Source: Escherichia phage AV118
Sequence record: OR352948.1
Reading direction: 5' to 3' (one strand)
Length of the DNA stretch: 64,000 nt
Part shown: piece after piece, positions 13,523 to 56,343 of the stretch
Layout: the number at the start of each line of letters is the position of its first letter
Position numbering within the stretch: position 1 is the stretch's first letter
Translations under genes and position numbers: made by a program
The notes under the pieces: generated by a model
Seen by the model: only the letters and a program-made list of their open reading frames with translations
The model's database searches: none
What the model was told of the DNA's origin: nothing

Positions 13523-14182
13523 ATTGCATGACTATATTTTTGTATGAACCTTCCGGAAATCCACGTTTAATGCTTTCTTTAGCAAATTTCCCAACCTTTG
13601 GTTTATCCAATTCTAACCATAATTTATATAAAGCAGATTCATATTCCCATACAGGACTTTTACGATTTTTAAGCCCACACTTTATAAGCACTTCCTTTGT
13701 ATGTTTCTTATTATAAAATGGATTGTTTTTGCCACTCATTGCTTTAGAATGTTCCGGGCGCTTAATTCCATACATCGGATTAAGATCGCCTTTCTTGATA
13801 ACGGATTGTAGTTCAATAGTTTCTTCAGAGTGATTGTGTCCATAAAATGGATTTAACTCTTTTGAAACATCCATACCAAAGCACCCATCGACTGTGGCAT
13901 AAGACATGTTGAAAAATTTTTCAGATTTAACCACATTATGCAATTTCTGGTAATACAACTCACAAAACGTCGCTTCTTCCCGTGTATCAAATTCGCCAAT
14001 AATACATGAATCAAATAAATGAGGATTATCTTTTATCTCTTTATCATAAATTTGTTTATATTTTTCGACTTTACCGTACCATGATAGTGATTGTTTGTAT
14101 GTTTATTAAGATAAGTAGACCCTATATAAAACGGTGGCAACTTATCGCCTGTGTATATTGTTAAGTATGTTATGTATTTCAT
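13500..14182 (-). pseudogene. GIY-YIG (Seg-like) homing endonuclease disrupted by -1 frameshift in an A5 run (plus-strand T-run 14061-14065)
   Basis: ATG at 14182 encodes MKYITYLTIYTGDKLPPFYIGST... (near-identical to N-terminus of intact Seg-like gene at 48570-49373) then stops after about 44 codons; downstream frame continues ...KYKQIYDKEIKDNPHLFDSC... into the NUMOD3-repeat ORF 13500-13958; restoring one A rejoins the frames. Confidence 0.55.
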
Positions 14183-31776: not shown

Positions 31777-32325
31777 TTAACGAGCCCATTTGATGATTTC
31801 TGTAATCAAATCATTACGTTCGCTTGCATTAAATCCTATAACTTTGTTAGCACCATCATGATTAAGTAATTGATACGTTTGGATTTCGTTATGAATTGCA
31901 AACTCTTCAAAATGTGAAATGACTGTATTAAAACCGAATGAAGACAAAGTAATAAGGTCGTCTTCAAAACTTTCAGTCATTTCGTTACGTGTTAAAATAA
32001 TTGTGAACACATCATGGTTTTGGCAAAGACGAATATAATCCTGTTCATAAACGTCAAGAACCGAGTCCGCATCTTGTCGAATACGTCCGTAAACCCAGTT
32101 ACTAATATATCCACGGTCTAACAGATAAATCTTAGTAGGGTCTAAATAATTCAACATCGTTTCGAAACAGCCAACTTCATTTCGAGACTTAACATCGAAA
32201 CGTCCATCAACTGTTCGTTTAGGGAAATCAATCTTTACATATCTTTCACTAATTTCCATTATGTCATTAATGAAAGTTGTTTTACCAGCATTATCCGGTC
32301 CATCTACTAAAATAATTTTAGCCAT
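31777..32325 (-). CDS. P-loop NTPase, nucleoside/nucleotide-kinase-like (182 aa), in the beta-glucosyltransferase slot
   Basis: Walker A VDGPDNAGKTT near N-terminus; TAATG coupled to upstream 299-aa gene. Confidence 0.5.
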   Translation of the reverse strand: MAKIILVDGPDNAGKTTFINDIMEISERYVKIDFPKRTVDGRFDVKSRNEVGCFETMLNYLDPTKIYLLDRGYISNWVYGRIRQDADSVLDVYEQDYIRLCQNHDVFTIILTRNEMTESFEDDLITLSSFGFNTVISHFEEFAIHNEIQTYQLLNHDGANKVIGFNASERNDLITEIIKWAR

Positions 32326-32326
32326 T

Positions 32327-33226
32327 TTATTCCTCGATTACGACATCTTCATATTTAGGTATATTATATGGTGAAGAAATTAAAGCATTAAAGTAGATGA
32401 ACTCACCAAGACCTGGATGAAATACTTCTTCAGGATTTTCGAAATATTGAATCTTCGGACGTCCTTTAAGAATTTGATAGTACTCGGTTTTAGTTGGTTT
32501 AAAAATTCGAATCAACGCTTCTTCAGGATACTTATTTCTGTCAAAGCTATTATTTGGATCTGTTATATAAAGCGGTTGACCTAATTGAATTGCGCATTCA
32601 ACAACTTGTTCAAAACGATAGCATGGGTCACTAATTCGAAATGGATGAAAAATACCATCTAGATTAATAGGAGCCAAATCACCTACAAGACGCTGCATGA
32701 TGGAAGGACGTATAACTTTCTGCGTTACGATAATCTTATTACCATCTGCACCTGCGTTAACCAGCACTTCTTTTTGACGTTCATTCAACACAGTTGTTTG
32801 GATTGAACGATTAACCGACAATATGTCGGTTTTTAAGAATTCGTCAATATAAAAACGTGGTTTATTAGGGTCTGCGGTGATATTGAAATTGAATTCTACA
32901 TCAAAAGCGCCGTCATATCCAGTGATATCTGTGATTAGAAAATCACAATCATAATAAGCAATTAATGAATCAACCACAAATTCATTTTCAGACCAGAAAT
33001 ATTTACGAGTGTTATACGCGTTATCTTTATACCATAATGGAACAAACTTAAATTCTGGAAAAAGACGTTCGCATTCTTTAATATCAGATGCATTACGTGG
33101 ATATGTAATCACATCACCCGGATTAGCACGGTGCAAATGAAGTTGGAAGTTGCCATCCTTAAGGATAGCATACTGTCCAGTTTCATAAGACCGCATACTC
33201 AAGATAGGTACGCGGAAAATAGCCAT
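32327..33226 (-). CDS. Unknown protein (299 aa) in the beta-glucosyltransferase slot; candidate hmC-modifying transferase
   Basis: Translationally coupled to gene 42 (TAATG); no motif recognised by eye. Confidence 0.4.
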   Translation of the reverse strand: MAIFRVPILSMRSYETGQYAILKDGNFQLHLHRANPGDVITYPRNASDIKECERLFPEFKFVPLWYKDNAYNTRKYFWSENEFVVDSLIAYYDCDFLITDITGYDGAFDVEFNFNITADPNKPRFYIDEFLKTDILSVNRSIQTTVLNERQKEVLVNAGADGNKIIVTQKVIRPSIMQRLVGDLAPINLDGIFHPFRISDPCYRFEQVVECAIQLGQPLYITDPNNSFDRNKYPEEALIRIFKPTKTEYYQILKGRPKIQYFENPEEVFHPGLGEFIYFNALISSPYNIPKYEDVVIEE

Positions 33227-33942
33227 TAGTCAAGGAATCCTTTAACATAATCAAAATCACGTTCAAACACATGGGCACTTACCATGGTATGAGTATAATC
33301 ACCAACTTCTACACCACATTCGTTAGCGATATAATGAAGTAATTTTCCTTGGAGATAAAAATCCAACTGCATAACAACAGCACAGTTCTGAGAACGCATA
33401 TGACAGTGGGTATAAAGCTTACCATCACGAATATAATAAGTCACTGAGTCAGTACATGGATATTCAAGCGTTTCGTCTGAATCAAGCAAAGCCTGATCAG
33501 AACTTTCTAGAATTTGGAACACAACTCTTCGGGAGTTAGGCTTCTCTTTAAGTTCTTTTAGAAGAGCTGGTAATTGAGCCGCAATGCGAGGACCATAGAA
33601 AGTGTTGAAGTTCGCCGGCAAAACATCTGATTTTGGTTTAGAAATAAATTTAGCGACATTAGGATATGCCTTAAACGCTTCTTCTGCATTGGTACCACCA
33701 GAAATCATAAACTTCCAGAAGTCTTCGGCATATTCATAAGAGATGCGGTTAATACGTGGGTCGGTCATTTTGAATGTCGATGGAGTGTCAACAACTACTG
33801 TCATAGACCCAATTTCATTACAACGTCCAATACGAGAATCAGTTACGAATTCCGGGTTTTCTAAAATTTCACGATTGACTGCTTTAAATGCGGCTTGAAA
33901 ATCTGCGGCTTTGATATATTTCATTGTGTTATGTTTTCCCAT
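33226..33942 (-). CDS. 42: dCMP hydroxymethylase gp42 (thymidylate synthase fold, 238 aa)
   Basis: Catalytic Cys in YPCTD; MRSQN...D with Asp at the position that is Asn in thymidylate synthase (cytosine-specific). Confidence 0.8.
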   Translation of the reverse strand: MGKHNTMKYIKAADFQAAFKAVNREILENPEFVTDSRIGRCNEIGSMTVVVDTPSTFKMTDPRINRISYEYAEDFWKFMISGGTNAEEAFKAYPNVAKFISKPKSDVLPANFNTFYGPRIAAQLPALLKELKEKPNSRRVVFQILESSDQALLDSDETLEYPCTDSVTYYIRDGKLYTHCHMRSQNCAVVMQLDFYLQGKLLHYIANECGVEVGDYTHTMVSAHVFERDFDYVKGFLD

Positions 33943-33961
33943 GTTTACCTCAATACAATTT

Positions 33962-33985
33962 ATTATATACTCAATTTGTAAAGCT
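33962..33985 (-). promoter_or_regulatory. Candidate MotA-dependent middle promoter for gene 42 (AGCTTTA box, 11 nt, TATAAT)
   Basis: Box/spacing resembles T4 middle promoters. Confidence 0.3.
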
Positions 33986-34124
33986 TATTTGAATTTCTTG
34001 ACAATGTTGATATAACGTAAAGCTTCAGCATCGATACTTCCAAGAACACTATGAAGAAATGCGTCAGCGTAGTATTCCAATTGAACAGGTTTCTTTAATC
34101 ACTTTAGCCGCTTTAGTTTTAAAC

Positions 34125-34144
34125 AGGCCCATCAGGGCCTTTTT
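34125..34144. terminator. Hairpin aggccc-atca-gggcct followed by T5 on plus strand (terminator-like)
   Basis: Read directly; orientation ambiguous. Confidence 0.3.
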
Positions 34145-34221
34145 AAGAATTTGTTCGTTAGTGTTCAGTTTAATAGTCAAAATCTCTTCGTTAAGTTTAT
34201 AATTAAAAGTTTTTCTAGAAA

Positions 34222-35382
34222 TCATTCCGGGTACCTCAAAGCGTCATCAGAGTTAGTTATATCAATAATAGATATAGAGTTTTCTGCTAACCCGTTTTTA
34301 GATAATTGACGTTTATAATATCTTTCACAATATGTACACGTCGTCCCGCAGATTTCATTAGCACAATCGAAATCTGGATGTCTGAACCACCTTTTTTCTA
34401 AAAAGCCATCTAACAAAGAGGTTTCAATATTTACTGTATGTGAAAACTCAGTTTCGTTTTCAAGAGTGAAAATGGTCTCTAAAGGCTTCCACAGTTCTAA
34501 CAAATTACCTTCAAACTTTTCAGAAGCGTATGCTTCAAGAACTTTCAAAATGTAGTCTGTGCTACCTGTACGTCCTGAAACTTTGAATTGAGTGATACCA
34601 ATATCATTATAAAGTTTCAAATCTTGAGGACGAACAAAACGAGTTCTCAACCAGTTAAATGGGTCTGTATCACGAGCTTTAATACAGTGCTGCATAGGAT
34701 ATCCGTTTAAGGATTTAGCATCATCAGCTGTAACATCAGTACTATGGAAAATATAGCAAGAGTCACGATAGCTACAATGTGTTGTATACCCTTTACCAGC
34801 ATTAGAACAGAACTCATTTACAAGAACTTCAAATATTATATTGTTCTTATTGCAAAACTCTGCTGCACGCTTCAGGAAAGAAACTGAACGGTTCTTATGA
34901 ATTCCACAGCAGACCTTTTTGATATTATATTGGTCATGCAAGTATTTGATTTGAGTTACAGCATCGACATGTAGAATTGTTGAAACTTCAATCTCAATGT
35001 CTTTATTGACTTCACGAACAATTTCCATAACAACAGGGTTAGCGATAGTAATACGCCATACGCCTATTGACCAAAGATACTGAACATAATCCTGAATAGC
35101 TTTCTTCTTCCACTCAACTAGTTCTCTTTTTGAACCAGGATTTATCGTGTTGAGTGTATAGTTAAAGCAAATACCTAATTCGTTACAACGTTTAACGTAA
35201 TCTTCTAACATCTTTTTGTCAACGTCAGGAAGCCTAAAATCAGGTCTGGCTGCTACAAAAGCCATTTCTCTTGTAGAGCCGTATACTTCGTTTATCAAGC
35301 TATTAGGATAAGTTTTATTGAGCTCTACGATTTTATCAAGAAGAGCTAAATCAAAATTCGTTCCAATTTTAAAAGTATTCAT
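34222..35382 (-). CDS. Cys-rich enzyme of unknown function (386 aa from ATG at 35382; ORF track GTG start 35397), possible Fe-S / U32-peptidase-like TIM-barrel protein
   Basis: C-terminal CxxxCxxC (CGTTCTYC) plus further Cys pairs; N-terminal VYGS...ARPDF...ELGI.F.YTLNT pattern reminiscent of U32 family. Confidence 0.45.
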   Translation of the reverse strand: MNTFKIGTNFDLALLDKIVELNKTYPNSLINEVYGSTREMAFVAARPDFRLPDVDKKMLEDYVKRCNELGICFNYTLNTINPGSKRELVEWKKKAIQDYVQYLWSIGVWRITIANPVVMEIVREVNKDIEIEVSTILHVDAVTQIKYLHDQYNIKKVCCGIHKNRSVSFLKRAAEFCNKNNIIFEVLVNEFCSNAGKGYTTHCSYRDSCYIFHSTDVTADDAKSLNGYPMQHCIKARDTDPFNWLRTRFVRPQDLKLYNDIGITQFKVSGRTGSTDYILKVLEAYASEKFEGNLLELWKPLETIFTLENETEFSHTVNIETSLLDGFLEKRWFRHPDFDCANEICGTTCTYCERYYKRQLSKNGLAENSISIIDITNSDDALRYPE

Positions 35383-35438
35383 TTTTTTGCATCTCACGTT
35401 AATTGATGCGATGGTTTTTGCAGGTCTTACTTAAATTA

Positions 35439-35840
35439 TTATAGATTCGGTTTATATGATTTAAATGTTTCGAATTCGCCTTTATTCATAAGAGCTTTGA
35501 ATTCGTCAGGACGCATAGCTTTGTCGTCGATAATCCAATCATATACTGGTTTATGTGTTAGCAAATTATGGTACTTCAAACCAATGTTTTCCAAGTTCTG
35601 AATCAGACTTGGGAGAATGTCAATTGCTATACGTCCAGGACCTACTGACTTCATACCGCGAGCAGTGTAAAGCGTTATGGTATGCCCTGCATCATACAGG
35701 GCATTAATGGCAGACACCATTTCGACGTCTGGTTTGAAGTTCACGTAATCACGATTGTTATTCCACTCTGTTATACAATCATCGACATCAAAACAAAGAT
35801 TAAGCATGTTTTCTACACGGTGCATTAGATTCGTTCCCAT
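35439..35840 (-). CDS. HAD-superfamily phosphatase (133 aa), KdsC-like candidate sugar-phosphate phosphatase
   Basis: HAD motif I FDVDD, motif II TARG, Lys, and DD motif (WIIDD). Confidence 0.55.
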   Translation of the reverse strand: MGTNLMHRVENMLNLCFDVDDCITEWNNNRDYVNFKPDVEMVSAINALYDAGHTITLYTARGMKSVGPGRIAIDILPSLIQNLENIGLKYHNLLTHKPVYDWIIDDKAMRPDEFKALMNKGEFETFKSYKPNL

Positions 35841-37510
35841 TGATGAGTGATATCGCCACCGATTGGACGATAGGAAACACCAGTTTCTTTATCAGTTAGT
35901 ACCCATTTACCAGGATTTTTTGTAATCAGAGTAGCCGTTACAGGTTCTGCTACGTCATAACTAATAGAGCCGTCTTGAAGTACACGGCCCATATTACGTA
36001 ATTGCTTAGTCAGAAGTTCCATACCTTTATAATATGCGGCTACCGCTTTAAGTGGATTATTCTTGAAATAACCACCTAATGCAATCCAGATAATTGCCAC
36101 TGCCAAATGATGATACTCGTTAAACGAACTCATCTTTCCATATTTGTAAACTAATGGATTGATGTTAATAGTCACATTACAAGTTGTTTCATCAATAGTA
36201 AACTGTCCCCAGGTCGGATTAGCATTGAATTCATCATAACCTGAAACAGCATAAAGCACTTTAGCTTCATCATACAATTTTGGCCCGTAAATCTTGGTTT
36301 CGCCAAAATATCCACGAGGGTCGATAAACTTGACTTCGCCGTTATCAGTAATCATAGTATTACTGAAGTTCGGGTCACCATGAATAACAGAGTACTGTCC
36401 CTGAGAACGGTTATGATAACGAATAAGGTGTTCTAAAGCTTGTTTCAGCATTGGCTTCAGACGTCCAATCTTAGTGTAGTTCACATGTGTGATTTTACCA
36501 AATGAATCAATCAATGGTTGAATGCTTTCACAACGATCAATAACTTTCGTATAGAATTCTTTAGTGAAATCACGACGAACAGTTTCAGGACTTACAAAAT
36601 AAGTGTCTGTGCTGAATTTCAGTGCATCTAAAATTGCATCAACAATTTGTGGACGAGCAAGACTTGATTTGGATTTAATATATTCAAATGCCGGCTTACC
36701 TTTAATGCGTTCCATTTCAAAGTTATTTTCATTAACAGAAACTAACTGAGGAACTGAATCTGATTTCACTTTCAAATACCACGAAATCTCATCTTTCTGA
36801 AGAGCTCGACCCTGTTCGGTTAATGCGAATTTAGTTACAGTTTCTTCACCAATTTCAACTGCATTAAAACTACGATTAAGTTCACGAACTTCATGAGCCT
36901 TTTCAAGTTTAGGCATATCACCAAGGTCGATGATATTCATAAGCTCTGATTTATTGAATGCGCCACTGTAAAGGAATTCTACGAAATCACGTCCTTTGCA
37001 GTATTCATGAATTTCCTCATCAGTAGAACCCATATAGAATTCCCAGTCTTTGAACTGATAAATTCCTACAACATTACCACCTGTTGAACCTACGTTAGTG
37101 ATATTTTCACCGTCGAAATTATATCGACATTCGTCACCCTTAACATAGATTGCATTAACATTCCAAGACCATGAACCAAAATCGGGAATAATATCACACC
37201 AGTTAACAATTACGTTATGGCCGTCTAAATCTTTGTGTAATTTAGCAAGAGCATAAGCAGAACCATACGCTTCATCAACTGTACGAATAGTCACATTGAA
37301 CCCTTCTTGCTCACAATAAGCTCGAACAGTTTCAGCAAATTTTGAATGAACTACTACAATAATTTCATCTGCGCCAAGGTCAGAATAAATTGTATACAAA
37401 TTGCTCAGAATAGTGTCTTGTTTATAGTTAACAAGCACCTTAGGAATATGATGCGTTATTGGATACAAACGAGTTGCCAGTCCAGCACCAAGAATAACAG
37501 CTTTTTTCAT
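35825..37510 (-). CDS. Bifunctional sugar-1-kinase (APH/choline-kinase fold) / sugar-1-phosphate nucleotidyltransferase (561 aa)
   Basis: N-terminal nucleotidyltransferase motif AVILGAGLATRL; C-terminal kinase Brenner motif HGDPNFSN and FIDPRG; GAGGA Shine-Dalgarno. Confidence 0.65.
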   Translation of the reverse strand: MKKAVILGAGLATRLYPITHHIPKVLVNYKQDTILSNLYTIYSDLGADEIIVVVHSKFAETVRAYCEQEGFNVTIRTVDEAYGSAYALAKLHKDLDGHNVIVNWCDIIPDFGSWSWNVNAIYVKGDECRYNFDGENITNVGSTGGNVVGIYQFKDWEFYMGSTDEEIHEYCKGRDFVEFLYSGAFNKSELMNIIDLGDMPKLEKAHEVRELNRSFNAVEIGEETVTKFALTEQGRALQKDEISWYLKVKSDSVPQLVSVNENNFEMERIKGKPAFEYIKSKSSLARPQIVDAILDALKFSTDTYFVSPETVRRDFTKEFYTKVIDRCESIQPLIDSFGKITHVNYTKIGRLKPMLKQALEHLIRYHNRSQGQYSVIHGDPNFSNTMITDNGEVKFIDPRGYFGETKIYGPKLYDEAKVLYAVSGYDEFNANPTWGQFTIDETTCNVTININPLVYKYGKMSSFNEYHHLAVAIIWIALGGYFKNNPLKAVAAYYKGMELLTKQLRNMGRVLQDGSISYDVAEPVTATLITKNPGKWVLTDKETGVSYRPIGGDITHQWERI

Positions 37511-37551
37511 GTTGAAGTCCTCATTGGTAAGTAGGAGTATTGTACACTATT

Positions 37552-37695
37552 CTAGTTAAAGCATTCATACTTTGCTTGTAGTCCAATCATAATCCATCCA
37601 ATTACAAGTGTTGGAATCATTACCGGAGCCGTTAAGCTCCAGTAGATAGTCATGACAAGCATCAATAGTAAAAGTCCTATTGTTATTGCTTTCAT
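37552..37695 (-). CDS. Small membrane protein (47 aa), below ORF-track threshold
   Basis: ATG at 37695 overlaps stop of SIS gene (ATGA); translation MKAITIGLLLLMLVMTIYWSLTAPVMIPTLVIGWIMIGLQAKYECFN. Confidence 0.35.
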   Translation of the reverse strand: MKAITIGLLLLMLVMTIYWSLTAPVMIPTLVIGWIMIGLQAKYECFN

Positions 37696-38327
37696 TGTTC
37701 GCCTCGTAACATGGCACCTAGTGCACCGCCTGGATGGAACTTAAGGAAATCATTAGAGGTAAATCCACGTTCAGACGAAAGGTTGATAGCAAACGTATCG
37801 ATAAGCGCTAACAACAATGTAGTGGACATTGTCGGAGCTAAAGAGTTCTCGTCAACTTCTACCGCGATACCAGTACAGAACGTATAATCAAAAAGAGCTT
37901 CGTATTCTTGTGGAATGTCAGGGTTACAATGTAACAGAATCTGTTTAACCTGAGGACGAATCATACGAAGATGTTTAGCAACACCTATCATTTCTTCAGT
38001 CTTACCAGAACGACTGATGTGAACTAATACATCATTAGGTGCAATAAATCCTGCGTCACCATGAGAATAATGCCCAGTGTTCAAGTACATACTTGGGATA
38101 CCGAGTGAAGCAAAAGTCTCGGAAGCTTTAGTTGCGATATTAGCGTTCTTACCAACACCTGTAATAATTACCCGGCTTTCATAATTACTAAGTCCAGGGC
38201 GTCGAAGAGTTTCTAGAATAGCGTTATAACGAGCAGGGTTTTGACTAATTACTTTAGCCATAGTGGCAAGAGATGAAGCTTGTTTTACGATTGCGTCAAT
38301 AGCGATAGTGATTGGTGTAGTTTTCAT
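37692..38327 (-). CDS. SIS-domain sugar-phosphate isomerase, arabinose-5-phosphate isomerase (KdsD/GutQ/KpsF)-like (211 aa)
   Basis: SIS motifs GVGKNANIATKASETFASLGIPS...HGDAGF...HISRSGKTEE closely follow the KdsD pattern. Confidence 0.7.
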   Translation of the reverse strand: MKTTPITIAIDAIVKQASSLATMAKVISQNPARYNAILETLRRPGLSNYESRVIITGVGKNANIATKASETFASLGIPSMYLNTGHYSHGDAGFIAPNDVLVHISRSGKTEEMIGVAKHLRMIRPQVKQILLHCNPDIPQEYEALFDYTFCTGIAVEVDENSLAPTMSTTLLLALIDTFAINLSSERGFTSNDFLKFHPGGALGAMLRGEQ

Positions 38328-43134: not shown

Positions 43135-43821
43135 TTAGAAGTCGTGAGTAGAATCGGCTTCCATCGCAATAACATAACTTACTTGAGAGCTTTCAAACTT
43201 GGCTGCAACTTTATCACCAGCTCCCCACAACATTACTTTATAGTTACCTGGCTGGATTTTCATATTAGCCATATTGATTACGAAGTTAAAGTTGTTAGAA
43301 CCATCATAATCGGTAAGAGTCAAAGAATACTTAGGACGAGTTAGTCCTGAATCTTCAACTTTATTATAGCCATTGATAACAATTTTACCATCTTTATTTG
43401 TAATAGCAATTGTATCAATCTGAAGACCACGTGAAACTCGAAGCAATTGTTGAAGGTCTTCAGCTTTAATTTCAGTAATCACAGAAGCTACTGGGAATTG
43501 AATTGGCTTATTAGGAAAAACAATTGTGCTCTTGTCAGCGGCAGGCCAATAAACTGTGGAACGTGTATCTGCAATTTTAATATTGCCATCAGTGTGCATT
43601 GAAATTTCAGCATCATCAGACACTAGACTCAAAATGCTTAAGAAGCTATTCAAATCATAAAGTGCTACGTCAAAATCAATTTCATCAGAGATATTTGCTT
43701 CCGCATAAGTGGTGCCATTAACTGCACGAGTCATAATAAATTTACCTTGACTCAGCAGAATGCCAGAGTTAATAGAAGCGAAGTTTTTCAGAATATTTAC
43801 GGTTTCACGGCTAAGTTTCAT
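43135..43821 (-). CDS. 45: Sliding clamp gp45 (228 aa)
   Basis: Size identical to T4 gp45; MKLS...NFASINSGILL N-terminus. Confidence 0.85.
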   Translation of the reverse strand: MKLSRETVNILKNFASINSGILLSQGKFIMTRAVNGTTYAEANISDEIDFDVALYDLNSFLSILSLVSDDAEISMHTDGNIKIADTRSTVYWPAADKSTIVFPNKPIQFPVASVITEIKAEDLQQLLRVSRGLQIDTIAITNKDGKIVINGYNKVEDSGLTRPKYSLTLTDYDGSNNFNFVINMANMKIQPGNYKVMLWGAGDKVAAKFESSQVSYVIAMEADSTHDF

Positions 43822-44708
43822 TTAGGTTTCCTATTAGCATAATAATTTGTCCAAGACCGGATAGCACCTTGGTATGATTCATCATTAAAACCATGCTGAA
43901 TTGCATGTTTTCTAAATGTAATATAACTTGGTTTTCCTAAAGCAATCCACAATTCCTTTAATTTTTGTTCATGAAATATCCATGTACCTCTAGCTTTAGA
44001 TTTTCTGAATTTATCCTTAAATTCTTTGGTTGCATTTCTTTTCGAAGCTGCGATAGAGGCCTTTGCTCTATTTTCAGGTTTAGACCAATACAATGTTTTA
44101 GATATTTTTATTTTATCTTTAACATTAGGAGAATTCATTATATCTTTAAATTTTAAAGCAAAATCTCTATCGCTAAACATTTTTTTAGAAAGAATAGAAA
44201 CTTTCTCTCTTCGTTCTTTGGTCCAATATGTTTTTTGAAATTCTCTAATTGCGTTTAAATGATTCTCCGACAATTTGCAATTTTTTCTAACACCGACGTA
44301 ATCTTCGTTTATTTCGTTTTTAGAAAGTTTTACTATTTTGCCTGTTTTTAAATTTTTATACGGTGCATATCCTTTAGCTGATATTCTAGACTTCTCGTTA
44401 GCATAAGCCTTATTAAAATATTTTTCATTTGAAACGGCTTTAACATTGAGTTGGAATAGTCTTTCTATTCTTCTAGGGTCTAATGTGGTTTCGCCTAAAA
44501 TTTTTACAGAATATTCGCCTTGGTCTATTAATCTGGTATATAAAGGAGAATACGAGGAATTAACACTACCGGTATATATTTTACCGGTAGAATCTTCAAT
44601 AATATCCTTTCCATTAAAATGACACGAAACTTTAGAACCTATATAATAACACGGGTATTCATTTTTAATCTCACGATTATAAAAGGTTATAAGATATATT
44701 AAATTCAT
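43818..44708 (-). CDS. GIY-YIG (Seg-like) homing endonuclease (296 aa from ATG at 44708)
   Basis: N-terminal LIYLITFYN...YYIGSK GIY-YIG motif; basic C-terminal DNA-binding region; inserted between rpbA and 45; weak Shine-Dalgarno. Confidence 0.55.
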   Translation of the reverse strand: MNLIYLITFYNREIKNEYPCYYIGSKVSCHFNGKDIIEDSTGKIYTGSVNSSYSPLYTRLIDQGEYSVKILGETTLDPRRIERLFQLNVKAVSNEKYFNKAYANEKSRISAKGYAPYKNLKTGKIVKLSKNEINEDYVGVRKNCKLSENHLNAIREFQKTYWTKERREKVSILSKKMFSDRDFALKFKDIMNSPNVKDKIKISKTLYWSKPENRAKASIAASKRNATKEFKDKFRKSKARGTWIFHEQKLKELWIALGKPSYITFRKHAIQHGFNDESYQGAIRSWTNYYANRKPK

Positions 44709-47310: not shown

Positions 47311-47554
47311 TATACGCATCCTCAATACACGCTTCAGCCATTTTAAGAATAGAGCCAGGAGTATCGTTGTCCATTATATTAAAGCTAAATTCAATAGCCC
47401 AGTCAGTGCAGACATGAACTGCTTTAACTTCATTGCCTTCAACGCGTAATGGCTCAATCCAATACTTGATAGTGTTCTCGAATCCATCGTCATCTTTAAC
47501 GTCCATTTCAACTTCAAGCCTGAGTCCAGCATTGTTAAATTCATCTAAAGTCAT
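47297..47554 (-). CDS. hypothetical acidic protein (85 aa)
   Basis: ATGA overlap with gene 47 stop. Confidence 0.4.
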   Translation of the reverse strand: MTLDEFNNAGLRLEVEMDVKDDDGFENTIKYWIEPLRVEGNEVKAVHVCTDWAIEFSFNIMDNDTPGSILKMAEACIEDAYNDED

Positions 47555-48573
47555 TGTGTTGCCTCAATATAAAGTTCGTTGGAATATTTGACCAGCGCTT
47601 CTCTGTCTTCATCTGAGATATCTGGAATCGCGTCAATATATTCTTTAATGATATCTTGAAGTGATTTAATCTCGATTTCCTGGTCGTCATCAGATTCAAC
47701 ACTGTTATCAACTTTAGAAACCATACGAAGAGAGTGAACTACTTTTTCAAGTTCAGATTCAAACTTAGTCAACTCTGAATCAATTTCTGATACTATAACA
47801 CGTACGGCTAGATTAGTATAATCAGAATAATTGATTTTGCCTTTAAATGGATAAGTGATTCGTCGATGCCATGTTGTTTCATTAGGAATAAATTCCATAC
47901 GTTCAACATCAGTGTCAAATACCCAGAATCCGCGAGGGTCGTTCTCATCACCTGCAGTAAGGGTCCATGGTGTCCCAATATATTTGACGTTAGCAGCTTC
48001 AGAGATTGTGTGGAAGTGGCCAGACCAGACTTGTTTATAGGTCTTTAAGAAATCAGGTTCAAGCCCATGAGACTTCATTCCTTTATAGAAATAGAAGCCA
48101 TTTAATTCCCAGTGCCCAACACAATACGCTGCAGAAGAAGTCTTGATGTGCTCTAAGATTTCACCTGTATTTTCTTCACACATCCATGGAATCAAATCAA
48201 TCAAGCACCCATCAAAATCTACTGTAGTTGGCTTATCATAAATTATTACGTTTTTACGATGGCTCAATAATTCTTGAACAGTGTTAGGATATAAGGTTGT
48301 TTTATAAAAGAGATCATGATTCCCAAGTATTGTATGGACTGTTATACCAGCGGCTTCCACCAAATCAAACATTTCACGCGTGAATTCCATACAACGTTGT
48401 GTGGTGTGGGCTCTGACATCAAATGTATCACCATATTGAATCCATGTTGTTATTCCATTTGCGACGGAATAGTCGATCATTTGTCTGAAACCGTCACGTT
48501 GTATAGCTTGAATCCAATCGTCGTCTTTTTTGACGCCTAGATGCAAATCGCCTATATTAAGTATTTTCATCAC
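47551..48573 (-). CDS. 47: Recombination endonuclease subunit gp47 (Mre11/SbcD-like phosphoesterase, 340 aa)
   Basis: Calcineurin-like motifs DLHLG, GDTFD, GNHD, GHFH. Confidence 0.9.
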   Translation of the reverse strand: MMKILNIGDLHLGVKKDDDWIQAIQRDGFRQMIDYSVANGITTWIQYGDTFDVRAHTTQRCMEFTREMFDLVEAAGITVHTILGNHDLFYKTTLYPNTVQELLSHRKNVIIYDKPTTVDFDGCLIDLIPWMCEENTGEILEHIKTSSAAYCVGHWELNGFYFYKGMKSHGLEPDFLKTYKQVWSGHFHTISEAANVKYIGTPWTLTAGDENDPRGFWVFDTDVERMEFIPNETTWHRRITYPFKGKINYSDYTNLAVRVIVSEIDSELTKFESELEKVVHSLRMVSKVDNSVESDDDQEIEIKSLQDIIKEYIDAIPDISDEDREALVKYSNELYIEATQ

Positions 48574-49373
48574 ATACCTTTAAATTTGGAGTAAATTATA
48601 TTGTGGTACGATATATCAGGAAACCCTTTATCGACCGCAATTTTTCTAAACTTATTAGGACTTATTTTACCACACTCCATCCATAATGCAAACAACTCGT
48701 CAAAATGCTCATATGCTGGACCTCGACGAGCTTTTGACACAGCAGCACTTATGCGAGCCTTTTTCTCAGAATCAAGGTTTTTAAGAGAATTACTTATTTT
48801 ATTTTTTTGCTCTTCTGAATTGAAGGTGCCTTTTTCCCAGCCTAAAGGTTGGCTTCCTTCATGGAACATTTTTCTTGAAGTTCCATTGGTATACCATATT
48901 TTACCTTTATTGTGCCCTGATGCTTTATATTTTGGTGAGCGTCCTTTTATAAATCCTTCAGGTATAGTAGGAGCAAATGTTTGTTCAAGGGTTTCTGGGT
49001 TATACGAATGTATGTTATTTTTGGCGTTATGAGACCCATATAATGGGTGATTTTTACCAGAAACATCACGCCCAAAGAAACCAGTTGGTGATGCCAAAGA
49101 CATATTCATATACAAAGGATTTTTATGAGCTTGAACTCTAATTTGATAGTCCTTTTCCACCTTTAAAGCTTCTTCTCGTGTTGGATGTTCGCTCAAAATA
49201 CAAGAATCAAACAACGTAGGATTTTCTAAAAGTTCTTTGTTATAAATTTTACGATAGGCTTTAGATAGAATAGTACCATGATACCCGTTTAAATGTTTTT
49301 CTAAGCTAGTCGAACCTATGTAAAAAGGTGGTAGCTTATCTCCAGAATAAATTGTCAAATAGACTATAAACAT
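48570..49373 (-). CDS. GIY-YIG (Seg-like) homing endonuclease with NUMOD3-type repeats (267 aa from ATG at 49373)
   Basis: YLTIYSGDKLPPFYIGST GIY-YIG motif; AAAGGAG Shine-Dalgarno; own promoter 49398-49427. Confidence 0.6.
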   Translation of the reverse strand: MFIVYLTIYSGDKLPPFYIGSTSLEKHLNGYHGTILSKAYRKIYNKELLENPTLFDSCILSEHPTREEALKVEKDYQIRVQAHKNPLYMNMSLASPTGFFGRDVSGKNHPLYGSHNAKNNIHSYNPETLEQTFAPTIPEGFIKGRSPKYKASGHNKGKIWYTNGTSRKMFHEGSQPLGWEKGTFNSEEQKNKISNSLKNLDSEKKARISAAVSKARRGPAYEHFDELFALWMECGKISPNKFRKIAVDKGFPDISYHNIIYSKFKGM

Positions 49374-49397
49374 ATATTTCTCCTTTGATTTAAGGAG

Positions 49398-49427
49398 ATT
49401 ATAACACGCCTTTAATGAAGCGTAAAC
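49398..49427 (-). promoter_or_regulatory. T4-early-type promoter (GTTTAC-N18-TATAAT) driving the Seg-like gene
   Basis: Read on minus strand. Confidence 0.45.
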
Positions 49428-49452
49428 AAAAAAAGGAAGCACTAGGCTTCCT
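49428..49452. terminator. Bidirectional hairpin terminator (aggaagc-actag-gcttcct) flanked by A7 and T4 runs
   Basis: Read directly. Confidence 0.45.
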
Positions 49453-49518
49453 TTTGATATCGCCTAAGGCTTATAGGTCCTTAGAAATCTGGATGTTCAT
49501 CTTCAACAAAGCTAGTAT

Positions 49519-49719
49519 TCATCGCTGCCACCATTTTTTAAGTTGATGTGAATCTACCCATACCTTCGCTACAGGCTCAATATTAAAAATACCATCGGAC
49601 GTACGTCCAATCATTTTGTATTCGGTTTCAGATTGCTTGATACAAATATCACCATAAGAGCGAAGTCTAAAAGCGGCTCCTACTAGAAGCCGTTTAAACT
49701 TTGTTTGAACTAGCGCCAT
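49519..49719 (-). CDS. hypothetical protein (66 aa from ATG at 49719)
   Basis: GAGGA Shine-Dalgarno. Confidence 0.35.
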   Translation of the reverse strand: MALVQTKFKRLLVGAAFRLRSYGDICIKQSETEYKMIGRTSDGIFNIEPVAKVWVDSHQLKKWWQR

Positions 49720-50017
49720 TAATGATGTCCTCAATAGCCTGACGAGTAGTAACCCACTGGATTTTAATTAACTTGTCATTATATGGTTGTCTTAGAATAT
49801 CCCGAGATTTCTTAATAGCATATTCGTAAGCTTCGAAGTTGTTTTGAATTGCTGCTTCTTGAGCATGAGCATAAAGACGGTTTAGTTCAAAACGATTCTT
49901 TTTAAGAATCTTTTCGGATTTTTTACGTGCTTCAGCTTCATTTTTCTTTTGGATTTCTTGTAGCATTTTAGCTACTGCATCTTCTGCTTCTTTATTTTCA
50001 ATAATCTCGGTAGTCAT
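49694..50017 (-). CDS. hypothetical coiled-coil protein (107 aa)
   Basis: Minus-strand ORF. Confidence 0.4.
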   Translation of the reverse strand: MTTEIIENKEAEDAVAKMLQEIQKKNEAEARKKSEKILKKNRFELNRLYAHAQEAAIQNNFEAYEYAIKKSRDILRQPYNDKLIKIQWVTTRQAIEDIINGASSNKV

Positions 50018-50018
50018 A

Positions 50019-50234
50019 TTATCTCATTAAATTAAAATAAAAACGTCCGTCCTCTTCAATACAGAACTCATACTCAACCGGAGTCCCATTTATCGAAAAT
50101 AACACGTCATGTGGGTTCAAAGGGTCGATGTCAAAATTAATTTTAAATTCACGACCCAACAGTTTTACCAAATAAGGGATTGCTTCGTCAAAAGGTTCTT
50201 CTAAGTAGTTAGAGATGTCAATTGTCATCCTCAT
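50019..50234 (-). CDS. hypothetical protein (about 70 aa); start ambiguous (ATG at 50234 or 50228)
   Basis: Overlaps 3' end of gene 55. Confidence 0.3.
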
Positions 50235-50775
50235 ATAAAAAATCCAAACTAGGCGAATCGCTAACAACTTCCTTCTTTTCAGCCCCAGGAGCTTTATAAG
50301 CGGATTCTTCATAATGCGTCATTTTATCGTAGATGTCTTGAATAAACGTTTCATCTACCAACGCTACCATATCATCGTCATGACTGTCGTAGACATTATG
50401 AACGAAGTAACTATATTTCTTTGCAACTTCCTTACGTTCTTTTTTGATACGTTGGACAAAAGCATTAAAACAAGCTCGAGTTATGTATGCATGTGGGTTA
50501 TTGTACTTAGTTTCGTCGAAATTATGAAGTCCCTTAATAGAGGCTTCAATCCCATCTGCAATCATCTCCTGCTTCCAAGACTGGGTATATCCTGAAAAGT
50601 TGAAACGTTTGGACAGGCCTTCGGCGATAAGCATAATTGCTAAACCGATGGTATCATTCTGACGAATAATTTTGTTTGGGTCTTTATTATTTAAGAGCTC
50701 CTTTTTCCACTCGATTATAGCGGCGAGAAGCTCTTTATTATTCACATAGTTATTTTTAGGTTTTTGTTCAGTCAT
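50218..50775 (-). CDS. 55: Late sigma factor gp55 (185 aa from ATG at 50775)
   Basis: [17 protein letters not shown]...[37 protein letters not shown] matches T4 gp55; ATG at 50775 with AAGAGG Shine-Dalgarno gives the T4 length. Confidence 0.85.
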
Positions 50776-50930
50776 AAGTACCTCTTGGCTCAATTCATAG
50801 GTCTATTATATCATAATATTTAGAGACCTATCTTAAAGCACGAGATACTATCAAAGATACGTAACTTTCATAAAGTTGTCGACTTAAAATTCACCAAACT
50901 TTTCTTCGGTTATAGCGATTCAAGATAGTT

Positions 50931-53717: not shown

Positions 53718-55531
53718 TGGTGTTTAACCCTATGCATGATTTCTTTATTTTTACCGAGATTAAATCCGCGTTCGTTCGGATTTCCCAAATAACCGCATGT
53801 TCTTCTTATGGTGTTCATCTTTTTAGGATCAGTTTCTCCACAGATAGAACAAACAAATCCGTTTTCAGTAGGAGTCATTTCATGGGTACTTCCACATGTA
53901 AAACATTTATCTACTGGCATATTAACACCAAAATAATCTAAATGTTGTGCAGCATAATCCCACACGGCCTCAAGTCCTTTTAAGTTATTTTTCATATCAG
54001 GAAGTTCAACATAAGAAATGTGACCACCTGTCGCAATGAAATGATATGGCGCTTCACGAGAAATCTTTTCAAACGGAGTAATATTTTCTTCTACTGAAAC
54101 GTGGAAACTGTTAGTGTACCAGCCTTTATCGGTAACATCTTTTACACTTCCATATTTTTCTGTATCGAGTTTACAGAAGCGATAACAAAGGTTTTCAGCA
54201 GGAGTCGAATATAAACTAAAAGCAAATCCAGTTCTTTCGGTCCACTGCTTAAGATGAGCATTCATTTTAGTTAAAATTTCTTGCCCAATATCACGACCGA
54301 CAAGAATATTCAATTCGTGAATACCAATGTATCCTAAAGACACTGAACTTCTACCGTTTTTAAATAACTCAATTATGTCGTCATCAGGTTTAAGACGAAC
54401 CCCGAATGCACCTTCTTGGTAAAGAATAGGAGCTACAGTTGCTTTAACACCCTTTAAAGAACTAATTCTACACATCAAGGCTTCAAAACACAGATCCATT
54501 CGTTCATTGAATAATTCAACAAATTTCTGTTCATTGAACTGTGTTCCAATATAAGAATCTAATGCGATACGAGGAAGATTCAGTGTTACAACGCCGAGAT
54601 TATTACGACCGTCAAGAATTTCATTTCCAGTTGAATCTTTCCATACGCTCAAGAAACTACGGCAACCCATCGGAGAAACTGGAACTGAAGAACCGGTAAT
54701 AGCTTTATTATTCTTAACTGAAATAATGTCAGGATACATTCTTTTGCTTGCACATTCTAACGCAAGTTGTTTAATATCATAGTTTGGATCATCTTTATAA
54801 AGATTAACACCTTCTTCAAAAAACATAACAAGCTTAGGGAAAATAGGAGTTATTCCATCACGTCCAAGGCCTTTAATGCGGTTTTTAAGAATTGCCTTCT
54901 GAATCATTCGTTCAGTCCAGTCAGTTCCTGTACCAAATGTAATTGTTACAAAAGGTGTTTGTCCGTTTGAACTAAAGAGAGTATTTACTTCATATTCATA
55001 AGCTTGGAATGCATCGTATACATCTTTTTCTGTTTTAGATTGAGCATAATTCAACGCATCAGCGATTTGCCATTTTTCTGCATCCTCAATATGTTTTGCA
55101 TAGGTGCGTTTAACATAAGGAGAAAGTACTTTATCTACATTAGCAAAAGTCGTTCCGCCGTATTGATGGGAAGCAACCTGTGCAGTAATTTGTGCCATAA
55201 TTGCAGTAGCAACACCGATTGATTTAGGAGTTTCAATCTGTGCATTACCAAGCTTAAATCCATTCTCAAGCATTCCTTTTAAATCTACTAAACAGCAATT
55301 AGTAAAAGGCAATGATATACTGTAATCTAAATCGTGAAAATGAATTAATCCGACATTATGAGCATTTACAATATGGCTCGGAAGAATACTACAAGCGATA
55401 TGTTTAGAAACAATACCGGCCATTAAATCTCTTTTTGTTGGAAAGACACGAGAATCTTTGTTGGCATTTTCGGTATTTAATTCTTTATCTTTATTTGAAA
55501 TAAAATTTAAAACATCTTTCTCTAAAGACAT
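53714..55531 (-). CDS. nrdD: Anaerobic ribonucleoside-triphosphate reductase NrdD (605 aa), uninterrupted
   Basis: C-terminal zinc-ribbon Cys cluster and glycyl-radical region; size as T4 NrdD. Confidence 0.9.
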   Translation of the reverse strand: MSLEKDVLNFISNKDKELNTENANKDSRVFPTKRDLMAGIVSKHIACSILPSHIVNAHNVGLIHFHDLDYSISLPFTNCCLVDLKGMLENGFKLGNAQIETPKSIGVATAIMAQITAQVASHQYGGTTFANVDKVLSPYVKRTYAKHIEDAEKWQIADALNYAQSKTEKDVYDAFQAYEYEVNTLFSSNGQTPFVTITFGTGTDWTERMIQKAILKNRIKGLGRDGITPIFPKLVMFFEEGVNLYKDDPNYDIKQLALECASKRMYPDIISVKNNKAITGSSVPVSPMGCRSFLSVWKDSTGNEILDGRNNLGVVTLNLPRIALDSYIGTQFNEQKFVELFNERMDLCFEALMCRISSLKGVKATVAPILYQEGAFGVRLKPDDDIIELFKNGRSSVSLGYIGIHELNILVGRDIGQEILTKMNAHLKQWTERTGFAFSLYSTPAENLCYRFCKLDTEKYGSVKDVTDKGWYTNSFHVSVEENITPFEKISREAPYHFIATGGHISYVELPDMKNNLKGLEAVWDYAAQHLDYFGVNMPVDKCFTCGSTHEMTPTENGFVCSICGETDPKKMNTIRRTCGYLGNPNERGFNLGKNKEIMHRVKHQ

Positions 55532-56343
55532 AATTCTAATTTATCCTTTTGAAATTCTTCGTCTAAATATGGGTTCCAACCCATTTTAAACCTTTTGATG
55601 AAATTATCAATTCTAAATTTCGGTAAATTTAACTCCGCAAAAATAGATGATTTACTTTTAAAATCTGGACCTAAATAATCATATAAAATTTCTGCGTATT
55701 TTAACCATAATATATAAGTACCAGATTTAATTGCTCTAGGAGTTTTCCAAGGTTTTACGCCGTACATCGGATTTCCACTTCCTTTATGCCTGATAGAAGA
55801 TGAAATTCCAATTTTAATTTTAGCTTCCTTTGTGTGCGAAAATCCATGATGTGGATTTTCTTTCCAGTATTTTTTAGAAGCTTCTGATATTTTCTTTCTG
55901 GCTAAATTAGTATGATGCTTTCCATAAAATCCATGATTTTTACCTTTATTACGATTTCTTTTAATCATGGTTATTGATTGCTTTTCTCTAGTTTCTTTAG
56001 AAGGAGAAACACCGTACGTTGTAAATTGACCATTAGCATATGCTAAATTAAAATACTCTTTATTCCATATATCTTTTTCTATATTCTTTTGAAATTCAGC
56101 TTCAATGCTAGTTATTTGTTCATCTCCGACTAATTGAAAATATAATATTTCAACTTTCGGTGTTTCTTTCAACAGAGCTTTTTGAAATTCGGAAGATGAC
56201 GAAGACGAATAATAAAATTTACCATTTTTATCAATAATATTCGTTCCGTCAAAAGTGCAATTGGTTTTACTTCCAATATAATAATATGGCGGGGTTTTAG
56301 CATTAATTCTACTAATAAATGATAGTTTATATACTACATTCAT
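55522..56343 (-). CDS. GIY-YIG (Seg-like) homing endonuclease (273 aa)
   Basis: VYKLSFIS...PPYYYIGSK GIY-YIG motif; NUMOD-like repeats; ATGA coupled to gene 49. Confidence 0.6.
   Translation of the reverse strand: MNVVYKLSFISRINAKTPPYYYIGSKTNCTFDGTNIIDKNGKFYYSSSSSSEFQKALLKETPKVEILYFQLVGDEQITSIEAEFQKNIEKDIWNKEYFNLAYANGQFTTYGVSPSKETREKQSITMIKRNRNKGKNHGFYGKHHTNLARKKISEASKKYWKENPHHGFSHTKEAKIKIGISSSIRHKGSGNPMYGVKPWKTPRAIKSGTYILWLKYAEILYDYLGPDFKSKSSIFAELNLPKFRIDNFIKRFKMGWNPYLDEEFQKDKLELCL

Follow-up and report, generated by a model that had tools for sequence, protein, structure and literature searches.

A predicted Seg-like homing endonuclease gene abutting gene 47 in an RB69-like phage that lacks alpha-glucosyltransferase

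In T4 the alpha-glucosyltransferase gene (a-gt) lies between genes 55 and 47, whereas the same interval in Escherichia phage AV118 holds several small ORFs and a putative homing endonuclease gene (HEG). Have these genes taken the place of a-gt, or does their presence have a different explanation? We analysed a 64,000 nt stretch of this genome (OR352948.1; hereafter the window), which shares approximately 99–100 % identity with Escherichia phage AV109, an RB69-like Mosigvirus, with small differences elsewhere (99.4 % identity). An initial annotation, made from the sequence alone, had assigned the T4 a-gt to the 55–47 interval, in agreement with the annotated T4 order (55, a-gt.5–a-gt.2, mobB, a-gt, 47.1, 47), and had described three small ORFs and a GIY-YIG endonuclease in the window, all of which we recovered. 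Gene 55, the three small ORFs, a terminator, a promoter, a 267 aa ORF and gene 47 all lie on the minus strand, as follows.

50218–50775, minus strand: gene 55, encoding the late sigma factor and bounding the interval upstream (phrog_234, E=3.9e-68; agrees with the AV109 CDS annotation)
50019–50228, minus strand: a-gt.5 orthologue of 69 aa, matching Pfam DUF5491 (E=1.8e-12) and T4 a-gt.5 (45 % aa identity, E=2e-16)
49694–50017, minus strand: a-gt.4 orthologue of 107 aa, matching Pfam DUF2654 (E=1e-27) and T4 a-gt.4 (58 % aa identity, E=3e-38)
49519–49719, minus strand: a-gt.3 orthologue, 66 aa (phrog_1648, E=3e-29; 46 % aa identity to T4 a-gt.3)
49471–49500, minus strand: a-gt.2 stub, nine codons (MNIQISKDL*), from alignment and reading of the sequence
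49431–49455, minus strand: intrinsic terminator of the 55/a-gt.x unit, AAAAGGAAGC-CUAGU-GCUUCCUUUU then UUUGUUU
49398–49427, minus strand: sigma-70-type promoter of the HEG–47–46 unit (scan score 10/12 with TG)
49379–49398, minus strand: hairpin pairing the HEG Shine–Dalgarno sequence, UCUCCUU-AAAUCA-AAGGAGA (scan; fold −8.6 kcal/mol, z=−3.4)
48570–49373, minus strand: predicted free-standing Seg-like HEG, 267 aa, stop overlapping the gene 47 ATG
47551–48570, minus strand: gene 47, whole
48196–48570, minus strand: 5′ end of gene 47 (~375 nt), HEG-linked foreign allele and candidate co-conversion tract (identity drop versus PhAPEC2/F2)
47551–48195, minus strand: remainder of gene 47, which encodes the Mre11/SbcD-like nuclease subunit, with the usual backbone sequence of Mosigvirus (PhAPEC2, 98 % nt identity)

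The locus is probably best understood as an ordinary a-gt.x block in a genus that lacks a-gt throughout, into which a Seg-like HEG has inserted and homed, co-converting the 5′ part of gene 47. Measured against this account, the initial annotation was correct in its description and partly supported in its interpretation. The largest ORF between genes 55 and 47 encodes 267 aa (290 aa if started at an upstream GTG), so the interval contains no 400 aa transferase, and tblastn with a-gt found none there, in keeping with the earlier observation that no gene of glucosyltransferase size was present.

The small ORFs had been taken to hold the a-gt slot, but proved to be the orthologues of T4 a-gt.5, a-gt.4 and a-gt.3 (45, 58 and 46 % aa identity, respectively), with T4 order kept downstream of gene 55. 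Pfam scores exceeded the cut-offs for both DUF5491 (47.8 bits; cut-off 27) and DUF2654 (96.6 bits; cut-off 25). T4 carries these same three genes beside a-gt, and they therefore do not occupy its slot. The remainder of a-gt.2 has been deleted relative to PhAPEC2, F2 and LF82-4, as judged by alignment. The a-gt.3 allele is of a Dhakavirus-like type and not the one usual in Mosigvirus: its product has only 51 % aa identity to the canonical Mosigvirus allele (phage F2), and its DNA shares 79–87 % identity with JS10/VR20-type phages and 96.7 % with ESCO47, a Mosigvirus without the HEG. ESCO47 thus displays the a-gt.3 allele swap without a HEG, indicating that part of the mosaicism in this region is not HEG-linked. 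The interval is probably the usual T-even ‘a-gt.x’ block (a-gt.5, a-gt.4, a-gt.3 and a stub of a-gt.2), which closes at a conserved terminator; next comes the promoter, likewise conserved, of the 47–46 recombination-nuclease operon. The small ORFs are conserved T-even genes; the absence of a-gt in RB69-like phages and the chemistry that replaces it were known already.

Neither a-gt nor b-gt nor ba-gt was found by tblastn (best E=1.2, 4.1 and 0.79, respectively) in about 91 % of the genome, comprising AV109 positions 1–50,000 and 120,000–168,548 together with the window (for 65.7–129.7 kb); AV109 50–65.7 kb was judged by its annotation, with gp32, tail-fibre and other genes filling it. No Mosigvirus occurred among about 650 a-gt-bearing records listed. 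A lack of glucosyltransferases in RB69-type phages is an already published, genus-level trait (PMC2993671, PMC6024577). RB69 DNA bears arabinose, not glucose (PMC6024577, PMC13326640), whilst DNA of phage HY126 bears arabinosylated 5-hydroxycytosine, with a fused kinase/nucleotidyl-transferase enzyme reported to make UDP-arabinose (PMC13326640). The whole RB69/HY126 arabinosyl-5-hydroxycytosine system (PMC13326640) has homologues in the window, namely of a ThyA-like 5hodCMP synthase, two GT-B transferases, an arabinose-5-phosphate isomerase, the fused kinase/nucleotidyl-transferase and a U32-like protein. A gene cluster for this modification occupies the b-gt/42 slot of T4, and the second GT-B transferase adjoins rIIA; both sites fall within the window. 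As a genus, Mosigviruses are without alpha-glucosyltransferase and produce arabinosylated 5-hydroxycytosine. A 55–47 interval without a-gt is ordinary because the whole genus is without the transferase and uses arabinose, and we attribute the absence of a-gt to this system, sited outside 48570–50234. Of the earlier proposal that glucosylation had been lost or replaced, replacement holds, given the arabinosylation genes in the window, whereas simple loss does not.

These genes also bear on whether glucosylation might be kept via a divergent homologue of a-gt at another locus, a scenario we find scarcely credible. It draws on ORF 9743–10843 of the window, a 366 aa ORF003c-like GT-B transferase whose HX01 homologue carries the RefSeq label ‘DNA alpha-glucosyltransferase’, and on the HHpred similarity of RB69 ORF003c to T4 a-gt described by Thomas et al. 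(PMC6024577). We rejected this transferase as an a-gt homologue, as comparison with T4 a-gt yielded a BLASTP E of 7 and an hhalign probability of 0.2 % (with shallow profiles). The protein is 96 % identical to the solved glycosyltransferase of HY126 (PDB 9iqz/9ir0), a phage with arabinosylated DNA, and its AF2 model, whilst poor (pLDDT 59.5), still matched 9iqz/9ir0 and GT-B enzymes. The isomerase and the fused enzyme also encoded in the window, the latter matching the HY126 UDP-arabinose enzyme, likewise argue against retained glucosylation. The initial annotation had named an a-gt homologue elsewhere as the finding that would count against it; our genome search, by tblastn over about 91 % and by annotation over the rest, found none at the sequence level, although a distant GT-B glycosyltransferase is present at another site.

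A second alternative, that a-gt was lost through the HEG or its homing, with the HEG taking the place of the glucosyltransferase at this junction, is highly improbable. The HEG does sit at roughly the T4 a-gt position, and a-gt.2 has been deleted here as well. However, the Mosigviruses PhAPEC2, F2 and ESCO47 have neither a-gt nor HEG, and Dhakaviruses lack a-gt irrespective of HEG form. In the Tequatrovirus ECO4, a member of the HEG family has a-gt/47.1 on one side and gene 47 on the other, and a-gt is intact; a HEG and a-gt are thus present together, and the HEG did not displace a-gt. The published absence of glucosyltransferases from RB69-type phages (PMC2993671, PMC6024577) also speaks against such a replacement. 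We hence regard the loss of a-gt as unrelated to the HEG.

The terminator that closes the a-gt.x block folds at −14.1 kcal/mol (z=−4.9), with an equally good fold in 0/200 shuffles, and a homologous hairpin is present at the matching position in ESCO47, PhAPEC2, LF82-4, QL01, SHP1 and T4. It had been called bidirectional; scan and fold confirm a terminator, whilst bidirectionality reflects hairpin symmetry alone, as the scan called no plus-strand terminator, the tail on that strand reads UUUUGAU and no plus-strand gene is nearby. The adjoining promoter comprises GTTTAC (−35-like), a MotA-box-like GCTTCA (49416–49421), a 12 nt spacer, TG and TATAAT (49398–49403). MotA middle promoters have the consensus (a/t)(a/t)(a/t)TGCTT(t/c)A, located 11–13 nt upstream of a TAnnnT −10 element. 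The site here, ACGCTTCA-N12-TATAAT, has one core mismatch against the T4 consensus, and better matches to the MotA box (TGCTTTA or TGCTTTC) were seen at the equivalent place in PhAPEC2, ESCO47, QL01 and SHP1. A module of terminator plus GCTTT(A/C)-N11–12-TA(G/T/A)AAT precedes 47, 47.1 or a HEG in T4, Mosigvirus and Dhakavirus. The scan thus upheld the promoter reported previously, but its designation as early is putative, as by consensus a MotA-dependent middle promoter fits as well as an early one. A T4 late promoter was not found close to the HEG, TATAAATA occurring once in the 64 kb and far off. Downstream, a transcript begun at the adjacent promoter would be without the 5′ arm of the hairpin that pairs the HEG Shine–Dalgarno sequence, and this hairpin may have a regulatory role.

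The 267 aa ORF is, by sequence and fold comparison, a free-standing Seg-like GIY-YIG endonuclease with predicted nuclease activity. Its predicted architecture begins with a GIY-YIG domain (about residues 1–95), continues through a beta-rich linker and ends in a helix-turn-helix domain that resembles the C-terminus of SegA. We made the GIY-YIG assignment from fold comparison only, which displayed a three-stranded sheet with flanking helices bearing the GIY and YIG motifs, because PDB sequence searches gave no relevant match with either the single sequence or a 28-sequence profile, and NCBIfam gave zero matches to any ORF. The Pfam PF01541 score of 17.8 bits (E=0.0042) fell under the gathering threshold of 22.6, and 6 of 28 family members matched PF01541 at E<0.01. 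Residues E73 and N90 are invariant in the 28 homologues and match the positions of I-TevI E75 and N90 in sequence comparison; no Arg equivalent to I-TevI R27 was evident in the alignment, in which R66 is invariant. The protein has been deposited as ‘hypothetical’ or mislabelled ‘HNH endonuclease’, and these results offer a better annotation.

Patchy free-standing GIY-YIG endonucleases are a classic trait of T4-like genomes. The window HEG resembles T4 SegA–SegG in being a free-standing gene between conserved phage genes with a GIY-YIG N-terminal fold, in its sporadic occurrence among close relatives and, for SegA, in the C-terminal helix-turn-helix (E=3e-6), although only the C-terminus of the window ORF aligns. 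It is orthologous to none of the T4 seg genes, T4 having only 47.1 at the gene 47 site, and the start of gene 47 is absent from the T4 insertion sites that PMC2988022 lists. From I-TevI of the T4 td intron it differs in lying outside any intron, in sharing 15–19 % identity, and in having neither an obvious Arg27 equivalent nor a NUMOD3 match. T4 mobB, located between a-gt and a-gt.2, provides a second homing endonuclease in the 55–47 interval. It is an HNH enzyme of an unrelated family with another insertion site; a relationship with the window HEG was rejected, as no similarity was found. The presence of both mobB (PMC2988022) and the window HEG in one interval indicates that it has been repeatedly invaded.

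Within the window, the HEG is flanked by the a-gt.2 stub/terminator and by gene 47, and is not contained in an intron or intein. The insertion site was identical, abutting the start of gene 47, in all nine loci examined (the window, LF82-4, ECO4, QL01, SHP1, L018, L019, L020 and L021), and relatives at this site span Mosigvirus, Dhakavirus, Tequatrovirus and three metagenome contigs. T4 and ECO4 form a precise absence/presence pair, with a clean insertion exactly at the gene 47 ATG. We rejected the idea that T4 47.1 is a HEG remnant, given that ECO4 has an intact 47.1 upstream of the insertion. Occurrence is sporadic, the allele being carried by 4 of ~153 closely related (Mosigvirus-level) records, with LF82-4 harbouring a diverged copy. 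We propose that the Seg-like GIY-YIG HEG inserted downstream of the promoter, just ahead of the start codon of gene 47, and would share a transcript with this gene; as its stop overlaps that start codon (TGATG), translational coupling would be possible.

Gene 47 itself (phrog_100, E=3e-134; Pfam Metallophos) is mosaic. Sliding identity calculated from alignments revealed a sharp switch at about nt 375, from 65 % nt identity (PhAPEC2/F2) to 98 % downstream. The 5′ segment is at least 99 % identical in four AV phages only; outside these no near-identical donor was found, the next best match being HEG-positive LF82-4 at 77 %, and metagenome contigs with the closest HEGs displayed only 62–73 % identity over the segment. 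The window has its 5′-47 allele class in common with the HEG-carrying contigs L020 and L021, whose backbones are unrelated, such that allele class follows HEG variant and not backbone. A mosaic boundary near nt 375 recurs between QL01 and SHP1. The T4/ECO4 pair lacks a long replaced tract and shows no more than 4 substitutions, which fall within the first 21 nt.

The identity switch and its linkage to the HEG leave a co-conversion-like footprint. Co-conversion of flanks has been described for T4 SegG and SegF (PMC2988022), and the flank replaced at the window HEG is a candidate for the same process. In a mixed infection, the enzyme would cut an allele that lacks the HEG, within or close to the 5′ part of gene 47, after which double-strand-break repair would transfer the HEG, along with the ~375 nt that open the donor’s gene 47, to the recipient; both cleavage and the position of the cleavage site are putative elements of this model. 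The replaced patch may otherwise reflect ordinary homologous recombination between co-infecting T-even phages, with the ORF as a passenger that is inactive or in decay and has ceased to home. The breakpoint falls at a sequence that is conserved throughout the T-even phages (ATTCCATGGATGTGTGAAGA), and recombination of the ordinary homologous kind would resolve there too. The HEG-independent a-gt.3 swap in ESCO47, the sub-threshold Pfam match and the short 205–208 aa forms without a C-terminal DNA-binding domain, which are common, all speak for this reading. Yet the window ORF is intact, catalytic-motif residues are invariant across the 28 homologues, the same site is occupied in several genera and the 5′-47 allele class goes with the HEG variant, and we consider ordinary recombination with a passenger ORF unlikely. 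Homing with co-conversion remains our preferred reading, and the turnover at this junction posited by the initial annotation stands in a narrower sense, in that the HEG occurs sporadically, at one specific site, and goes with a replaced 5′ third of gene 47.

In gp47, the metal-binding motifs GDLH, GDxFD and GNHD fall within the first ~125 codons. More tentatively, and with somewhat more doubt than confidence, we suggest an uncharacterised Seg-like lineage with the start of gene 47 as its fixed homing site in at least Mosigvirus, Dhakavirus, Tequatrovirus and metagenomic T4-like phages, which would travel as a module with the first ~125 gp47 codons, such that homing would swap part of an essential recombination nuclease between genera. 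If true, such exchange of gp47 could serve as a weapon in mixed infections. AV109 versus PhAPEC2/ESCO47 and ECO4 versus T4 are natural presence/absence pairs, and offer a cleanly defined system in which to study homing into an essential nuclease gene and the accompanying co-conversion.

Every gene between genes 55 and 47 lies on the minus strand of the window, and the initial annotation had listed the contents and ORF sizes of this interval correctly: the small ORFs matched named families far above chance, and the terminator folded at -14.1 kcal/mol against -4.3 ± 2.0 in shuffled sequence.

Features of the 55-47 interval
50218-50775, minus, gene 55 (late sigma factor)
50019-50228, minus, a-gt.5 homologue (69 aa, Pfam DUF5491)
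49694-50017, minus, a-gt.4 homologue (107 aa, DUF2654)
49519-49719, minus, a-gt.3 homologue (66 aa, phrog_1648)
49471-49500, minus, a-gt.2 stub (nine codons)
49431-49455, minus, terminator hairpin followed by a U-tract
49398-49427, minus, promoter
49379-49398, minus, Shine-Dalgarno hairpin
48570-49373, minus, 267-aa ORF, its stop overlapping the gene 47 ATG (TGATG)
47551-48570, minus, gene 47

The order in T4 is 55, a-gt.5, a-gt.4, a-gt.3, a-gt.2, mobB, a-gt, 47.1, 47. The three small ORFs follow the same order, with 45 % (a-gt.5), 58 % (a-gt.4) and 46 % (a-gt.3) identity to the T4 proteins, and are thus conserved neighbours of the alpha-glucosyltransferase (a-gt) slot, residents rather than replacements. 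The slot proper, between a-gt.2 and gene 47, here contains only the a-gt.2 stub, terminator, promoter and endonuclease gene. It was therefore wrong to read the small ORFs and the homing endonuclease gene (HEG, the 267-aa ORF) as having moved into a slot that a-gt had left; moreover, Tequatrovirus ECO4 carries both a-gt and the HEG, so the HEG is no competitor of a-gt for the slot. The a-gt.3 coding sequence also contains a terminator-like hairpin (49594-49611, minus; AUUGGACGUACGUCCGAU then a U-rich tail), kept in ESCO47 with one change.

Window positions 47500-50900 were 100 % identical in AV109 and AV114 and 99.9 % identical in AV115 and AV116, all of them RB69-like phages of the genus Mosigvirus recovered from pig waste in Denmark; outside this region, identity to AV109 was 99.4 %, so the window derives from AV109 or a very close relative. 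Approximately 150 more records matched the flanks at 95-99 % with only 57-59 % query coverage, a first hint that the central part of the interval is atypical of the genus. The typical Mosigvirus order (PhAPEC2, F2) is 55, a-gt.5, a-gt.4, a-gt.3, a-gt.2, terminator, 47, lacking a-gt and HEG alike; F2 is a Tequatrovirus in its RefSeq record, yet 97.8 % identical to the window flanks. ESCO47 additionally lacks a-gt.2. The slot is filled by a-gt in Tequatrovirus, Klebsiella phages such as Roth79 and Erwinia phage Cronus. An a-gt homologue elsewhere in the genome, the check named initially, was not found at sequence level: tblastn with T4 a-gt, T4 b-gt and RB14 ba-gt gave nothing better than E=0.8 across AV109 1-50,000 and 120,000-168,548 plus the window for 65.7-129.7 kb, and AV109 50-65.7 kb, judged by annotation, is wholly taken up by gp32, gp59, rnh and tail-fibre genes. 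Mosigvirus as a genus lacks a-gt, in agreement with Petrov et al. (PMC2993671), who reported no glucosyltransferases in RB69 and JS98.

The suggestion that glucosylation had been replaced was borne out by arabinosyl-5-hydroxycytosine pathway genes in the window. RB69 DNA carries arabinose, with ORF003c proposed as the transferase (Thomas et al., PMC6024577), and a 2026 study (PMC13326640) defined the base as arabinosylated 5-hydroxycytosine and mapped the pathway to RB69 gp45-55 and gp3. A complete RB69/HY126-type cluster lies at 31777-38327 (minus) between uvsX and gene 43, at the place of T4 b-gt/42.

Arabinosylation genes in the window
Within 31777-38327, minus, kinase-like ORF (182 aa)
32327-33226, minus, phrog_3891 protein, putative transferase (299 aa), at the position of RB69 gp46:47
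33226-33942, minus, ThyA-like gene (hydroxylase)
34222-35397, minus, U32-like gene
35825-37510, minus, nucleotidyl-transferase/kinase fusion
37692-38327, minus, SIS-domain arabinose-5-phosphate isomerase
9743-10843, minus, GT-B glycosyltransferase (366 aa), adjoining rIIA, homologous to RB69 ORF003c

The 366-aa protein shares 96 % identity with the phage HY126 glycosyltransferase of known structure (PDB 9iqz/9ir0). Its HX01 homologue is labelled 'DNA alpha-glucosyltransferase' in RefSeq, despite no detectable sequence homology between the 366-aa protein and T4 a-gt (BLASTP E=7; hhalign probability 0.2 %). Replacement of glucosylation is thus by genes elsewhere, independent of the endonuclease. 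Outside the window, the AV109 record (L006, 35303-36295) has a '2-keto-3-deoxy-D-arabino-heptulosonate-7-phosphate synthase' annotated beside dCMP deaminase, a sugar-phosphate enzyme that may be linked to the arabinose pathway.

The 267-aa ORF is 'hypothetical' in GenBank and belongs to phrog_10820 (E=1.8e-75), mislabelled 'HNH endonuclease'. Its Pfam GIY-YIG match was below threshold (17.8 bits), and many homologues contain NUMOD3 repeats. An AlphaFold model built from 28 homologues (mean pLDDT 83) had the I-TevI catalytic domain as its best three PDB matches in Foldseek (probability 0.97-0.99), the T4 SegA C-terminus aligned with the final ~50 residues (E=3e-6), and Y9, Y18-I-G-S, E73 and N90 were invariant across the 28 homologues; no counterpart of I-TevI Arg27 was evident. 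Given the fold matches, SegA alignment and invariant residues, 'Seg-like GIY-YIG homing endonuclease', as first annotated, is a fair description with predicted cleavage activity, although the ORF is orthologous to none of the T4 seg genes. A paralogous Seg-like endonuclease (296 aa, 43818-44708, minus; phrog_7504) between gene 45 and rpbA is 26 % identical to the 267-aa HEG and matches it in N-terminal motifs and C-terminal domain, and nrdD and gene 49 are separated by another free-standing HEG (273 aa, 55522-56343, minus; phrog_7504, phrog_314). Two further endonuclease ORFs (10886-11699 and 13500-13958, minus) look split or truncated in the window and are intact in AV109 (265 aa, 227 aa) at 99.4 % nucleotide identity, which could reflect frameshifts, decay or sequencing differences and marks the window as distinct from the deposited AV109 sequence.

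Relatives of the HEG (55-66 % amino acid identity) sat directly upstream of gene 47, overlapping its start, in all loci examined (Mosigvirus LF82-4; Tequatrovirus ECO4; Dhakavirus QL01 and SHP1; metagenome contigs L018, L019, L020 and L021). A clean presence/absence comparison is offered by T4 and ECO4, which are identical through 47.1 to GATATATGAAAA, after which ECO4 has ~600 nt of HEG and then gene 47, with four substitutions in its first 21 nt and none in the next hundred. T4 mobB encodes an HNH endonuclease of an unrelated family and lies elsewhere in the same interval (PMC2988022), which makes at least two invasions of the interval. These observations upheld the proposal of HEG traffic at this junction. 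Short forms of 205-208 aa without the SegA-like C-terminal DNA-binding domain were common in Tequatrovirus and Dhakavirus, and may be decaying copies.

Short-form HEGs
L011 (ECO4 locus), 2992-3615
L012 (QL01 locus), 2995-3612

The HEG was also linked to replacement of the first third of gene 47. Identity to the window across nt 1-378 and nt 379-end was 65 and 98 % in PhAPEC2, and 76 and 98 % in HEG-positive LF82-4; two Dhakaviruses with different HEG forms had the same switch point, with 126 of 161 differences before nt 375. The 378-nt segment reached at least 99 % identity in the four AV phages only. In L020 and L021, identity to the window was only 67 % over the 3′ part of gene 47 but 71-73 % over the 5′ part, and their gp47 N-terminus belongs to the allele class (VRAHTTQ..., LFYKTTLYPNT, SHRKN) seen in the window and in LF82-4. 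The metallophosphoesterase motifs of gp47 are intact. By analogy with SegG (PMC2988022), such a footprint would be expected of co-conversion starting at a cleavage site some way from the HEG; alternatively, recombination may simply have resolved in ATTCCATGGATGTGTGAAGA, a stretch conserved universally. The segment linked to the HEG extends from shortly past the terminator (~49430) to ~nt 375 of gene 47 (~48196). The a-gt.3 allele is Dhakavirus-like (79-87 % to JS10/VR20-type phages; protein 51 % to the usual Mosigvirus allele), and HEG-less ESCO47 has the same allele (96.7 %) and terminator; the a-gt.3 swap is thus independent of the HEG. Nothing in the interval departs from known T-even biology; modestly new is a Seg-like lineage, so far uncharacterised, whose fixed site is the start of gene 47 and which is linked to the swapped gene segment.

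A terminator hairpin and T-run followed by GCTTT(A/C)-N11-12-TA(G/T/A)AAT precedes gene 47, 47.1 or the HEG in T4, PhAPEC2, ESCO47, QL01 and SHP1, and this module fits the MotA-box middle-promoter consensus. The window has GCTTCA, a 12 nt spacer and TGnTATAAT, with GTTTAC at the -35 position created by a 6-nt insertion. The window promoter is thus the conserved one of the 47-46 unit, behind which the HEG has been placed. The promoter annotated as early is present, and an early class is plausible, although a MotA-like middle box also fits; according to Edgell et al. (PMC2988022), the seg and mob genes of T4 are served by middle or late promoters and by none of the early class. The hairpin at 49379-49398 pairs the HEG ribosome-binding site, and a transcript that begins ~7 nt past the -10 element would not include the 5′ arm of this hairpin, such that HEG translation may be limited to promoter-proximal transcripts. 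The terminator annotated as bidirectional is a hairpin with a U-tract; 'bidirectional' reflects hairpin symmetry only, the plus-strand tail being weak with no plus-strand gene nearby. The T4 late-promoter motif TATAAATA occurred once in the whole 64 kb against 7.5 expected from shuffles, a scarcity in keeping with a stretch made up of early and middle genes.
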